A DNA stretch of 64,000 nt from an uncultured Saprospiraceae bacterium. Its GTDB lineage: Bacteria; Bacteroidota; Bacteroidia; Chitinophagales; Saprospiraceae. Location of the stretch: the NCBI GenBank assembly GCA_964441245.1, contig CAYTVR010000004.1, positions 15,119-79,118 on the forward strand, written 5' to 3'. This document shows, one piece after another, positions 16,336 through 20,380 of the stretch. A model generated the notes under the pieces. The model was not told the origin of the DNA. It did not search any database and saw nothing but the letters and a program-made list of their open reading frames with translations. The position numbers and the translations under genes are program-made. Numbering within the stretch: the first letter of the stretch is position 1; each line of letters opens with the position of its first letter.

Positions 16336-16725
16336 TTTACTTAGTTAGGTACTATATTTGTTGTAAAGATAACTATTGTAAGAACTATTTCTAAATTTGA
16401 AGACTCCTGTGACAAGTTTATTTTTAGTTTTTTTTGAAAAGTAAGTATTTTTTGAAAAGTTTATTTTAGTATAAACTGTAAAAAAATCGTGATATTCTCC
16501 TATATCTATTGGACTTTTCGTTCAAAACTGCTTGCTTATTTAACCATTTAAACGTGTAAAAAAATCAATTTCATCTAAATTATAACATTTTTTTTGGCAT
16601 ATTCTTTGCAACTTTTTAAGTATCCTACCCCTCACAAATTTACCCTCCTTCTTACCTCCCAAAGAAATTCGGAATTACATTAATTCTATCACCATATTAT
16701 TTCATTAAATCTAAAATCCCATGAC

Positions 16726-16908
16726 ATGAAAAGATTAGCAAACCTAAGAAAAGAACTTCCAAAGAAATCGAAGTTGAATTCATTTCAGGTTAAAAACCTC
16801 AAAGGAGGAGCAGATAAGAACAAAAGAAAAGTTCGAGCGTCAGGCACTACTGCAAGCTCAACTCCTAATCCAGGATCTTTTGGTTCATACACTAGCTCTG
16901 GAGGTTAA
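16726..16908 (+). CDS. Small peptide with a double-glycine-type leader (putative RiPP/bacteriocin-like or signalling peptide precursor)
   Basis: The leader KLNSFQVKNLKGG has hydrophobic residues at -4, -7 and -12 relative to GG, as in double-glycine leaders. The 32-aa tail is Ser/Thr/Gly-rich and ends SSGG. The gene has its own downstream hairpin. Confidence 0.5.
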   Translation: MKRLANLRKELPKKSKLNSFQVKNLKGGADKNKRKVRASGTTASSTPNPGSFGSYTSSGG

Positions 16909-16954
16909 TTCAACCTATTTAAACTTCTTAAGTTTAAAGGAAGTACAGTTTAGT

Positions 16955-16988
16955 AAACGAATTAGGGTATTCATACTCTAATTCGTTT
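16955..16988 (+). terminator. Hairpin downstream of the peptide gene
   Basis: The aaacgaattag / ctaattcgttt 11-bp stem is followed by T-rich sequence. Confidence 0.5.
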
Positions 16989-17067
16989 TACTTAGTTTTT
17001 GACAAAACACTTTTGATGAATATTCACCACCTAAGAACTCCAAAACATCCAATGAATCATTAGTGTA

Positions 17068-19263
17068 ATGAGCATGAAAAAAAATAAAGAACTCTCTACT
17101 TCAAATCAAAGCTATTATCTTTTTTTATTGATAATGGTATTTTGCTATTGTAGCACCTCTATTTATGGAAAGAATTTAGATAGTCTGAAAATAGTAATCG
17201 ATCGAGAAACAAAAGATCAAAGTATGCTCTCTTTAGTAAAGCATGCTGCCAACCATTCTCATAAAGATTTAGATCTTGCTTTAGCCTACCTGAGTCTTGC
17301 TCGCGAAAATGCTTTGAAAGCAAACAATTACCACGACCTATTTGATATACAAAGAGAAACTGGTTTTGTATATGAAGAAAATAATCAATTGGAATCTTCT
17401 CTGGCTTCTTTCCAAGAAGCATTAGAAACGGCAGAAAGACTTAATAATCAAATCCTCAAAATCACCATTTATACTGACATCGCTGTACTCAATGAAAAGC
17501 TTGGCAAATATGCTATTGCAAAAGATTATCATGTTAAATCGATAAAAATTGCTCAAGATGAACATGATCTAGAGACGGTAGAAAATGCCTATCATGGATT
17601 AGGCTCATTATATGAACGAGTTGGTGACTATGATAAAGCTATTGAATATTATTTTCAATCACTAAAAATTGCAGAAAATCGAAAATCTGGATCTGGTGTC
17701 ATTATCACATTACAAAGTATTGCCGATACCTATAATCAAATTGGGAATGAAAAATTAGCCTTACAAACAATTGAAAAAGCATATAATAATGCTGTCCACT
17801 TAAAAGATCAAGTACTAATAGCCAATACGGCCTATGATTTTGGAAAAATTCTAAATGATCATGGCTCTTTAGATAAAGCCTTAGAAATGCAAATGGCTTC
17901 TTTAGAAACTTATCAAAAAATTCAAGATAAACCAGCTATCGCTAGAGGTTTAGTCAACGTTGGTGAAATATACACCAAGAAAAAAATGTTTATCCAAGCA
18001 AAAATGTATTTCAAAGAAGCCACCAAAGAAAAAGAATATCTTTCTATTTTAAATGATGCTGACTTGAATCATAAACTTGGTAATCTTTATTTGGAATTAA
18101 ATGATATCAATAAAAGCGAAGCTTCGTTTAAGAAAAGTTTAGAAATATCAACTGCAAACGAATTAAAAGAATTAGAATTAAAGAACAATTATAGCCTTTA
18201 TCAAATCAATGCAGACAAAGGAAATCATAAGGAATCATTAGCTTATCTGGAGACCTATATTGAGCATAACAATTACATGCTTAACCAGGAAAAAACTAAG
18301 CGAATTATTGAGATGCAGTTTAAATTTGACGTAGAGAAAAGTGATAAAGAAATTCAAAGTTTAATGCTTCGACAAAATAGGATATTCCTTTTAGGAACTG
18401 TACTAATGTTTACTTTTTTAATCTTATTCTTGATTTACATTATCAGATTAAAAGGTCAAAACAATACCAAACTTTTAAGAAAAAGCGAAGAGATCAAAGA
18501 TCAAAACATCCGTCTAGAAGAATCCAATGAAGTTTTAAAACAATTTGCTTACGTAGCAGCACACGATTTAAAAGAACCGCTCAGAAATATCGGAAGCTTT
18601 GTCAGTTTGATTCAAAAAAGATTTGGACATGAATTAAGTGATGAGGCCAATGAGTATATGAACTTTGTAACTAAAGGAGTCAAACGGATGAATAATCTTC
18701 TAGGAGACTTGCTACGCTACTCAAGAATAACAGAACAATCGGCAGAACAAGAGTTAATTGAACTTGATGATATACTAGAGGAAGTAACTTGTAATTTAAG
18801 AGAAAGAATTATCACAAGCAATGCTGTCGTTAAAACGCCACCACCTCTTCCACCTATTCGCATGAGTCGGATTCACTTGGTTCAAATTTTCCAAAACTTG
18901 ATGAGTAATGCTTTAAAATTTGTAGAAAAAGATCCTGTTATCATTATTGATGGAAATGTCAAAGACAATGAATTTATCATCAGTATCAGTGACAATGGAA
19001 TTGGGATTAACAAAGAATATGAGCATAAAATATTCAATCTATTTCATCAACTCAATAAACGAAAACAATACGAAGGAACTGGAATTGGTCTAACCATTTG
19101 TAAAAACATTGTAGACAAATACAATGGAAAAATCTGGTTTGAATCTGAGCAAGGAAAAGGAACTACCTTCTTTATTAGTTTGCCAATTAGTGTCATACAA
19201 AGCGAAGAAGAAAAGGCCAATAATGCGCAAGAACTGAAGTTAGAATTAGCGAAAGCTAATTAG
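17068..19263 (+). CDS. TPR-repeat sensor histidine kinase (single TM, HisKA + HATPase_c)
   Basis: Long TPR region, a TM helix (IFLLGTVLMFTFLILFLIYII), the H-box FAYVAAHDLKEPLR, N-box and G-boxes (DNGIGI, GTGIGL). No response regulator lies adjacent. Confidence 0.88.
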   Translation: MSMKKNKELSTSNQSYYLFLLIMVFCYCSTSIYGKNLDSLKIVIDRETKDQSMLSLVKHAANHSHKDLDLALAYLSLARENALKANNYHDLFDIQRETGFVYEENNQLESSLASFQEALETAERLNNQILKITIYTDIAVLNEKLGKYAIAKDYHVKSIKIAQDEHDLETVENAYHGLGSLYERVGDYDKAIEYYFQSLKIAENRKSGSGVIITLQSIADTYNQIGNEKLALQTIEKAYNNAVHLKDQVLIANTAYDFGKILNDHGSLDKALEMQMASLETYQKIQDKPAIARGLVNVGEIYTKKKMFIQAKMYFKEATKEKEYLSILNDADLNHKLGNLYLELNDINKSEASFKKSLEISTANELKELELKNNYSLYQINADKGNHKESLAYLETYIEHNNYMLNQEKTKRIIEMQFKFDVEKSDKEIQSLMLRQNRIFLLGTVLMFTFLILFLIYIIRLKGQNNTKLLRKSEEIKDQNIRLEESNEVLKQFAYVAAHDLKEPLRNIGSFVSLIQKRFGHELSDEANEYMNFVTKGVKRMNNLLGDLLRYSRITEQSAEQELIELDDILEEVTCNLRERIITSNAVVKTPPPLPPIRMSRIHLVQIFQNLMSNALKFVEKDPVIIIDGNVKDNEFIISISDNGIGINKEYEHKIFNLFHQLNKRKQYEGTGIGLTICKNIVDKYNGKIWFESEQGKGTTFFISLPISVIQSEEEKANNAQELKLELAKAN

Positions 19264-19426: not shown

Positions 19427-20380
19427 TCAAAGCGAATACTGCTTCATTTCCTTTGCGATATTAAATCCAGCATCCTCAACTATTTTTTGAATAACTGGAT
19501 CTTGCAAAACAGGATTGGTATGATTGAAATGAATGAAGAAAATTTTTTCTTTCTCTTTCCTTTCTAATGATTCAAAAAGCGACATCGATTCTTGGATAAA
19601 AGGATGTGGAATCTGACTCATATTTCTTCCAGGTATTTCCCCATCAGCAAAAAAAGTTCCATCCAGAAAAGCATAATCTACCTGATGTATTTCTTTTGTA
19701 ATTTCTCTTTCCCATGATTGCCATTTATTGATATCAGGGATAAACAATAATTTCTTTTTTGGGCCCATGATTTTAAATCCTACTGTTTCAGAATATTCAT
19801 CTCGATGAGGAACTAAGATTGGTTGTATTTGCAATTGTTCATTAAGTACGATTATAGAATCTTCTTTCAAATCATTCAATTCAATATTTTTCAATTTTAC
19901 TAATTGACTCCAAGGACCATTTTTACGTAAGTAGTCTTCCATTCGTGGCATCGCGTAAACAGGCATTTGTTTGGCGCCCATCACCTCTCGACCAAGTTGC
20001 ATCAATCCCGTATAATGACCGATATGCGCATGTGTCAAAAAGATACCCATCAAATTTATTTTGTCCGTTCCTCTATGGTTTTGCAATCTATATAATTGTT
20101 CTCGAAAATCTGGGGTAGCATCAATCATCCAAGCTTCATGAGTTATTGGATCTACTACTGCTATGCAAGAAACTAGCTTTCGCAAAGCAGCATTTTTCCA
20201 AACAGCTTTACAACATTTTTTCTTGCAATCTGCTTGAGGAAAACCAGCATCTTGTGCGATTCCCAAAACGATTGCATAAGGTTTATTTAATTTTTTAGAT
20301 TCGGCATTTTCCTGGACAGGTTGATCTGATGAAGTACAAGTTATTAAAAAGAAGATAGGGAAAAAGAGGAGGTATTTCAT
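19427..20380 (-). CDS. MBL-fold metallo-hydrolase (PqqB-like), lipoprotein
   Basis: Lipobox (LITC). The THAHIGHYTG metal-binding motif and overall pattern resemble the PqqB/PhnP-type beta-lactamase fold. Confidence 0.65.
   Translation of the reverse strand: MKYLLFFPIFFLITCTSSDQPVQENAESKKLNKPYAIVLGIAQDAGFPQADCKKKCCKAVWKNAALRKLVSCIAVVDPITHEAWMIDATPDFREQLYRLQNHRGTDKINLMGIFLTHAHIGHYTGLMQLGREVMGAKQMPVYAMPRMEDYLRKNGPWSQLVKLKNIELNDLKEDSIIVLNEQLQIQPILVPHRDEYSETVGFKIMGPKKKLLFIPDINKWQSWEREITKEIHQVDYAFLDGTFFADGEIPGRNMSQIPHPFIQESMSLFESLERKEKEKIFFIHFNHTNPVLQDPVIQKIVEDAGFNIAKEMKQYSL

Follow-up and report, generated by a model that had tools for sequence, protein, structure and literature searches.

Gene pairs in which a peptide with a double-glycine (Gly-Gly) leader is encoded beside a membrane histidine kinase are known from Firmicutes, where ComC/ComD/ComE with ComAB, BlpC/H/R and PlnA/B/C/D show this arrangement. 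We describe a pair of the same outline in a Gram-negative host of the phylum Bacteroidota: in a 64-kb stretch of the draft genome of an uncultured Saprospiraceae bacterium (the window, meaning the whole stretch analysed), a small open reading frame (ORF) with a Gly-Gly leader stands upstream of an orphan sensor histidine kinase with tetratricopeptide repeats (TPRs), and genome comparison indicates that the two are conserved as a pair. As in the ComCDE-type circuits, export would be expected through a C39-peptidase ABC transporter, and a separately terminated small transcript would fit the same autoinduced logic. The likeness has limits: those circuits rely on a polytopic HPK10 kinase and an adjacent LytTR regulator, whereas here we find a predicted periplasmic TPR/HisKA kinase with no linked LytTR gene or exporter, a sigma-54-type promoter that points to an NtrC-type activator, and conservation that extends over no more than ~8-10 residues at the start of the predicted mature peptide. 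We propose that the peptide is exported, that the periplasmic TPR domain of the neighbouring kinase senses it, and that it is expressed from a sigma-54 promoter under the control of an NtrC-type regulator, a reading whose correctness we hold to be close to an even question, tipped slightly to the doubtful side.

Three other described systems share parts of this design. The kinase has the layout of FimS from the FimS/FimR pair of Porphyromonas gingivalis, in the same phylum, namely a signal peptide or first transmembrane helix (TM1), periplasmic TPRs, a second transmembrane helix (TM2), HisKA and HATPase. FimS is a periplasmic eight-TPR sensor kinase whose ligand is reported as unknown and might, in its authors' view, be a polypeptide (PMC11053733). 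The kinase in the window is not a FimS orthologue (103.5 bits on NF053520, cut-off 600); it is an orphan whereas FimS has the regulator FimR, and no peptide gene has been reported beside fimS. The receptors of the RRNPP family (Rap, NprR, PlcR and PrgX, with Phr/PapR-type peptides) combine a TPR receptor with a genetically adjacent short signalling peptide, as we propose here, but they are cytoplasmic and bind re-imported, Sec-exported peptides, whereas the TPR domain described here belongs to a kinase and is predicted to be periplasmic, and the leader of the peptide is of the double-glycine type. Finally, the leader is of the same type as in the Bacteroidota double-glycine precursors of ribosomally synthesized and post-translationally modified peptides, represented by PF14406 (Bacteroid_pep) and TIGR04194 (grasp-with-spasm peptide A). 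The similarity is confined to the leader and lies below the cut-offs, and this locus differs in having no linked radical-SAM, ATP-grasp or other maturase gene and a Cys-free, unconstrained core. In the literature searched, we found no Bacteroidota TPR kinase described as the partner of a Gly-Gly-leader peptide, nor any published peptide-based cell-to-cell signalling in that phylum.

All of our evidence is comparative. It draws on 201 genomes of the family and on 270 genomes from 25 other families of the order; the compared genomes are related, so that counts overstate independence, and many are incomplete metagenome-assembled genomes. Homologues of the peptide with 41-66 residues, in the same frame, occur in eight of nine sampled congeners and in a second genus, and the pairing with kinase orthologues extends over the same eight of nine congeners and ~15 other genera of one family. 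A peptide profile matched 17 of the 201 family genomes, 16 of them credibly, and found the family in none of the 270 genomes beyond. Wherever the locus offers enough DNA, a TPR kinase with a signal peptide follows the peptide gene on the same strand, at a distance of 95-400 nt. The reverse search, with the TPR domain alone, recovered the kinase clade in 23 of the 201 family genomes, and the loci inspected from it contained Gly-Gly-leader ORFs that the first peptide profile had missed. An upstream Gly-Gly-leader ORF accompanies ~23 kinase loci in all; it is missing from two loci at which enough DNA was available and from two kinases that are the second copies of tandems. The pair sits among phenylacetate (paa) and E1-dehydrogenase genes in the window and in most other genera, and in most congeners it is flanked by an SDR gene and, at the opposite end, by MsrA and TonB-receptor genes. 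Because these flanking genes differ between lineages, we regard the pair itself as the conserved unit. The pairing with this kinase clade, for which the preliminary description had suggested looking in related genomes, is thus conserved by the measure of gene order in many genera.

A database of 5.8 billion clusters holds 41 members of the peptide family, one of them, of another peptide class, from Phaeodactylibacter luteus, which assigns the group to the Saprospirales, and each member that its source names is a 'hypothetical protein'; in those of the 41 whose sequences were inspected, the reading frame and the position of the Gly-Gly are retained. Within our sample, the type of peptide core follows the tree of the sensor domains, with class B confined to a single clade and none of 500 shuffles as clustered, and relatedness alone accounts for part of this clustering. 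Some genomes carry tandem peptide copies with differing tails.

Variants of the arrangement were also seen. A sister kinase subclade (genomes G208, G047, G163 (C3) and G100; loci L030, L151, L145 and L155) is paired with a different peptide of 66 aa, composed of a Gly-Gly leader and a conserved 38-aa core that ends in EYC-x-x-W. At L047, L048 and L051 (G079, G136 and G084) two tandem copies of the kinase gene flank a single peptide gene (kinase, peptide, kinase), and the upstream copy is far more divergent in G079 and G084, where both copies are complete. In the relative G163 (L052:6815-10127), a 957-aa TPR-CHAT protein is encoded directly upstream of the pair.

The 60-aa ORF quoted in the preliminary description is the exact translation of its coordinates on the plus strand (Table 1). 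Substitution rates were computed among five congeners, in which the kinase and SDR neighbours set a local synonymous rate of dS ~1.2-1.5. Judged by these rates, the leader and the motif that follows the Gly-Gly are under strong purifying selection, and the tail, with a dS equal to that of the neighbours and a nucleotide identity of 35-37% among congeners, appears almost neutral; positive selection on the tail was considered and ruled out, since its dN is not above the local dS. An ORF without conservation, or with a dN/dS near 1, had been named at the outset as the finding that would speak against a gene; instead the ORF is conserved, its leader has a dN/dS of ~0.15, and the comparison identifies the small ORF as a real gene whose protein sequence is constrained.

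In its residue pattern, the leader is similar to double-glycine leaders already known. In an alignment of 21 homologues (A2), M1, L17 (position -12), K26 (-3), G27 and G28 are invariant and L4, L7 and L11 are conserved in at least 90%, the level that L25 (-4) and P12 also reach in an alignment of 11 sequences (A1). Hydrophobic residues had been pointed out at -4, -7 and -12: those at -4 (Leu, Ile or Val throughout the family alignment) and -12 are family-wide, whereas -7 is variable. Position -8 is mostly Gln or Glu, and position -15 of the window's peptide is non-hydrophobic. After the Gly-Gly, most family members have x-[DE]-K-R-x-x-R-P and then a low-complexity tail of variable length and composition, and the shortest homologue has only EGDKRKPRPSNGG (13 residues) beyond it. 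The candidate active part is the conserved N-terminal motif after the Gly-Gly. Of the 32-aa product predicted earlier, the Gly-Gly boundary stands as conserved; as a whole the product is probably not the functional unit, conservation being limited to its first ~8-10 residues.

How might such a peptide leave the cell? The genome, an 8.4-Mb draft in 637 contigs that is 85% complete, encodes three proteins with C39 and ABC domains, each followed by an HlyD-type gene and none adjoined by a substrate gene. Two of these peptidase-containing ABC transporters (PCATs), on contigs C31 and C21, have an intact catalytic DAMDCG motif plus the His and are predicted to be active; the third PCAT-like protein, of 820 aa on C46 (L064:9965-12427), has a degenerate C39 domain without the catalytic Cys motif. 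The genome thus contains two intact candidates for an exporter whose absence, according to the preliminary description, would have told against a secreted peptide. A PCAT is present in 16 of 16 credible peptide carriers and in 134 of 201 genomes overall, for which we estimate a nominal hypergeometric probability of ~1e-3, uncorrected for relatedness.

Export would also be expected if the peptide were not the ligand of the kinase at all, but served as an effector resembling microcins or bacteriocins, or as a secreted factor of matrix or biofilm like EbfG, with a kinase that only regulates it or is co-inherited. The double-glycine leader and the unlinked pairs of PCAT and HlyD genes are compatible with that, as are the tandem copies with differing tails and the low-complexity, hypervariable tail itself, and a precedent exists for non-antibiotic GG-motif secreted proteins in a Gram-negative organism, the EbfG proteins of Synechococcus, which have a matrix or biofilm role (PMC4997328). 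The criteria of class II bacteriocins and microcins fit poorly: the neighbours are metabolic, there is no adjacent immunity gene or dedicated exporter, and pore-forming or modified toxins differ from this hydrophilic, Cys-free and mostly unconstrained core. Nor is an immunity-like gene or a maturase conserved beside the pair in relatives. The sensor kinase is the sole conserved partner across ~20 genera, peptide type tracks the sensor-domain phylogeny, and the shortest homologue has only 13 residues past the Gly-Gly. We consider an exported peptide that is not the ligand rather unlikely.

The architecture of the kinase bears on the proposal of a sensed peptide. A signal peptide or TM1 at residues ~16-34 is followed by the TPR region (~36-436), TM2 (437-463), HisKA (491-556) and HATPase_c (601-707); Pfam finds at least five TPR matches in the array of ~400 residues, plus HisKA and HATPase_c, and the orthologues have clear signal peptides and a DSLK motif. 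Given a signal peptide and a single later transmembrane helix, topology places the TPR domain in the periplasm. Its closest solved relatives by sequence are consensus TPRs and the peptide-binding superhelices of the LGN/Pins type, and the Rap phosphatases of the RRNPP family match it more weakly (E ~4e-4). The earlier statement that the kinase has no cognate response regulator agrees with what we see, in that it contains no receiver domain itself and none of the genome's 107 receiver domains lies on the window's contig.

The peptide gene has a promoter-like element and a terminator of its own. The pattern TGGCAYN5TTGCW has its sole exact match in the 64-kb window at the sigma-54-type element (0.15 expected), and among 19 orthologous upstream regions 12 have an element with at most one mismatch, usually at a distance of 130-145 nt from the ATG, against a mean of 0.09 and a maximum of 1 in shuffled sequences. 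No sigma-54 element precedes the kinase gene in the window; one is found there in some lineages only, with an atypical -24. Farther upstream, two direct repeats in the window were considered as a shared activator site and rejected, being seen neither in the upstream sequence of the closest relative nor in other relatives. Downstream of the ORF, the hairpin terminator announced in the preliminary description is confirmed: a stem of 15 bp precedes a run of T, and the hairpin folds with -18.5 kcal/mol (z = -5.8 relative to shuffled sequences). A hairpin and T-run occur in the same place at 18 of 19 loci, with stem sequences that differ between genera; among near relatives, 10 base pairs of the stem do not vary, and compensatory changes occur in the inner pairs. 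The suggestion of an independent small transcription unit is strengthened accordingly by a promoter and a terminator that are both conserved in the closest clades, and the peptide gene is, from these elements, a tightly controlled and separately terminated unit with a predicted transcript of ~370 nt (our estimate).

The terminator stem has a feature of its own. In the window (16957-16988) and at L010, L024 and L025, it retains CGAATTAG/CTAATTCG in several genera and CGAAATAG in one; this conservation of stem words, despite saturated neutral sites, exceeds what a terminator needs and may reflect a protein- or RNA-binding site.

Because ORF, hairpin and kinase gene share one orientation and the terminator is conserved, the ORF could in principle act in attenuation, as a leader peptide whose translation decides whether transcription passes the terminator and enters the kinase gene. 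Its stop codon lies ~45 nt before the hairpin, so that a ribosome would not reach it; such peptides are conserved at regulatory codons only, whereas here a 37-residue sequence of export type is conserved; and promoter-like elements follow the terminator in several lineages. We think attenuation highly improbable.

A second intracellular explanation deserves more weight. The 70 nt before the ATG, together with the first ~38 codons, are 88-98% identical at the nucleotide level in congeners, the 70 nt alone 89-98%, although neutral sites are saturated there. The start context TAAAATCCCATGACATG is conserved in the window (16716-16730) and its relatives, and in it a mini-ORF of two codons, ATG ACA TGA, overlaps the peptide's ATG. 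The product might then be a cytoplasmic micro-protein (the 37 conserved N-terminal residues) or a regulatory or dual-function RNA, with a Gly-Gly that is no cleavage site. Such conservation far beyond the neutral level would fit, as would the tight sigma-54 promoter with a strong terminator, which is reminiscent of small-RNA genes, and the fact that all leader-family matches are sub-threshold. Against it, the Bacteroidota double-glycine pattern of amino acids holds across genera whose nucleotide sequences are unalignable, with frame and Gly-Gly position retained in database homologues, and a periplasmic sensor next door suits an extracytoplasmic partner. A structured or known RNA in the 5' leader was ruled out by the null results of folding (z = 0.13, not significant) and of an Rfam comparison, which gave no credible match and one sub-threshold hit on the opposite strand (E 0.1). 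On balance we judge an intracellular product unlikely.

Returning to an exported, sensed peptide, what would complete the circuit? A sigma-54 promoter requires an activator, which makes an NtrC-type regulator the most economical partner for an orphan HisKA kinase, and such a regulator would be our choice of partner. The genome has rpoN on contig C95 and seven strong PF00158 sigma-54 activators, six of them with receiver domains. In the sequence of events we propose, the peptide gene would be transcribed alone from the sigma-54 promoter, with transcription stopping at its own terminator, and its product would bear a double-glycine leader of the Bacteroidota type. A PCAT with its HlyD partner, encoded at another locus, would cleave after the Gly-Gly and export the peptide, which would start with the conserved basic motif x-D-K-R-x-x-R-P, its variable Ser/Thr tail probably being dispensable or trimmed. 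The TPR superhelix of the adjacent kinase would bind this N-terminal motif in the periplasm, the kinase would signal to an unlinked regulator, most plausibly an NtrC-type sigma-54 activator, and the regulator would switch the peptide promoter on, giving autoinduction. What we infer is that the peptide is cleaved, exported and bound by the TPR domain, which regulator takes part, that a feedback loop exists, and the regulon that responds. The fully closed form, a self-contained autoinduction in which the peptide leaves through an unlinked PCAT, its DKRKxRP motif is read by the periplasmic TPR domain and an NtrC-type regulator re-activates the sigma-54 promoter, is conceivable and distinctly doubtful. 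Of the secreted signal and sensor suggested in the preliminary description, the conserved gene, the pairing, the PCATs and the predicted periplasmic TPR domain speak in favour, and the scores against precursor models, which remain below cut-off, do not. The probability left over by this reading and its three rivals belongs to other explanations.

Several observations weigh against signalling of this kind. The first concern the peptide. Searches with hidden Markov models of Gly-Gly precursors, recommended at the outset, gave only matches under the curated cut-offs: the window's peptide matches no NCBIfam model and reaches 15.3 bits on PF14406 over residues 1-39 (cut-off 25), and among the 21 homologues 12 match PF14406 (best E 4.8e-4) and five match TIGR04194 (best E 2.9e-4), all sub-threshold. 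Synonymous sites of the leader-coding region are conserved too (dS ~0.3-0.4, compared with 1.2-1.5 in the neighbours), and together with the conserved 5' leader this means that part of the constraint may act on RNA and not on the peptide. Among congeners the TPR domains share ~91% identity, yet the tails cannot be aligned; this rules out that tail and sensor diversify together, and a tail that drifts beside so constant a sensor is not a co-evolving specificity determinant. Other observations concern the remaining components. With PCATs in 67% of the family's genomes, their presence alongside the peptide carries little weight as evidence. No exporter or maturase was seen within 10 kb of the pair at any of 19 loci, and neither the conserved nor the lineage-specific neighbours include an exporter, maturase or immunity-like gene. 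Only the closest clades have an exact or near-exact sigma-54 element, which is weak or absent upstream of more distant modules; genome-wide, the strict pattern has 11 matches, about what base composition predicts (~11 by our estimate), so the case for the promoter rests on position and conservation. A receiver profile, built from 32 of the genome's receiver domains and able to detect receivers correctly at other loci, found none within 10 kb of the pair at any of 19 loci, which rules out a linked regulator. The sole NtrC-type regulator without a neighbouring kinase, on C26, is present in 41 of 41 genomes sampled across the order; being universal there, it does not co-vary with the module, and its distribution gives no specific signal for it as the partner.

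The same design recurs in the genome with an unrelated core. When the leader profile was run over the 52,157 small ORFs of the genome, the best non-self match, found before its neighbour was known, lay on contig C235. The module there (L067:7718-10003) consists of a 43/45-aa Gly-Gly-leader peptide with the core AYYCCVRNQWYW, a hairpin terminator and then a 690-aa TPR-HisKA-HATPase kinase. A sigma-54-like element, TGGAATTGTTTTTGCT, precedes the peptide at -121, and the start context TCATGACCATG shows the TCATGAC(C)ATG pattern shared with the window's peptide; no receiver-domain match was found on contig C235. The genome-wide search for paralogous peptides proposed in the preliminary description has in this way yielded a second module, and this module and the sigma-54 promoter are additions to that description. 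A Gly-Gly-leader ORF precedes only two of the 19 TPR kinases of the genome, which rules out such ORFs as a general feature of TPR kinases.

If real, the autoinduction circuit would, to the extent of our search, be the first description of peptide quorum sensing in Bacteroidota, and would suggest a class of ligand for FimS-type TPR sensor kinases, which are abundant in the phylum and whose signals are reported as unknown. The module offers a candidate ligand-receptor pair with a short motif that can be synthesized, a soluble periplasmic domain that can be expressed and a sigma-54 promoter that could serve as a reporter. Double-glycine peptides in this group would then be wired to sensors and not to maturases, which would change the annotation of such 'orphan' small ORFs.

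Table 1. Features of the peptide-kinase locus, with positions in the window and substitution rates among five congeners
Feature	Position	Strand	dN	dS	Remarks
Two direct repeats, AGT(T/A)TTTTTTGAAAAGT	16426..16460	+			~150 nt upstream of the -24; AT-rich; putative activator site, uncertain
Sigma-54-type -24/-12 promoter, TGGCATATTCTTTGCA	16595..16610	+			GG-N10-GC spacing; 131 nt before the peptide ATG
Predicted 5' leader	16622..16725	+			~105-115 nt; C/U/A-rich, G-poor, unstructured; no significant fold
Peptide ORF	16726-16908	+			60 aa
Double-glycine leader, residues 1-28, ending LKGG	16726..16809	+	0.03	0.37	Homologue alignment, weak PF14406 similarity; dN/dS 0.15
Conserved start of predicted mature peptide, ADKNKRKVR	16810..16836	+	0.13	0.31	Post-Gly-Gly motif; family motif x-[DE]-K-R-x-x-R-P; dN/dS 0.27
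Low-complexity Ser/Thr/Gly tail and stop codon	16837..16908	+	0.82	1.17	Hypervariable, near-neutral; dN/dS ~0.7
Intrinsic terminator, hairpin and T-run	16952..17000	+			15-bp hairpin at 16955-16988
Orphan sensor histidine kinase	17068-19263	+	~0.06	1.4	731 aa; TPR, HisKA and HATPase_c, no receiver domain
SDR neighbour			~0.05	1.2

Further small peptide genes were noticed elsewhere in the genome. On the minus strand of C20 (~20726), a 39-aa ORF (...KIKRNDGGYTWVG) with a terminator of its own is preceded by an exact sigma-54 consensus, TGGCATTATCTTTGCA, at a distance of 171 nt. The ORF has no adjacent kinase and may be another sigma-54-driven small peptide gene. Contig C185 (L065:5322-5934) has one or two more Gly-Gly-leader ORFs, for example ...LGKIKGGFIGITDLVGG, divergent from genes for a 995-aa Y_Y_Y/propeller histidine kinase and a 246-aa receiver-domain protein.

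The surroundings of the pair in the window agree with their first description. The non-coding DNA upstream, put at about 390 bp, amounts to 390 nt without a credible ORF between the end of a divergent crotonase gene (16335) and the peptide ORF. Within ~5 kb on both sides the genes are metabolic, with no C39/ABC exporter or maturase among them, as had been stated; they encode a crotonase, a fused E1 dehydrogenase, an SDR, an MBL-fold protein, a BaxI-like protein and products of the paa cluster. The gene for the MBL-fold (Lactamase_B_2) protein, at 19427-20380 on the minus strand and convergent with the kinase gene, is a conserved neighbour at six loci from several genera.

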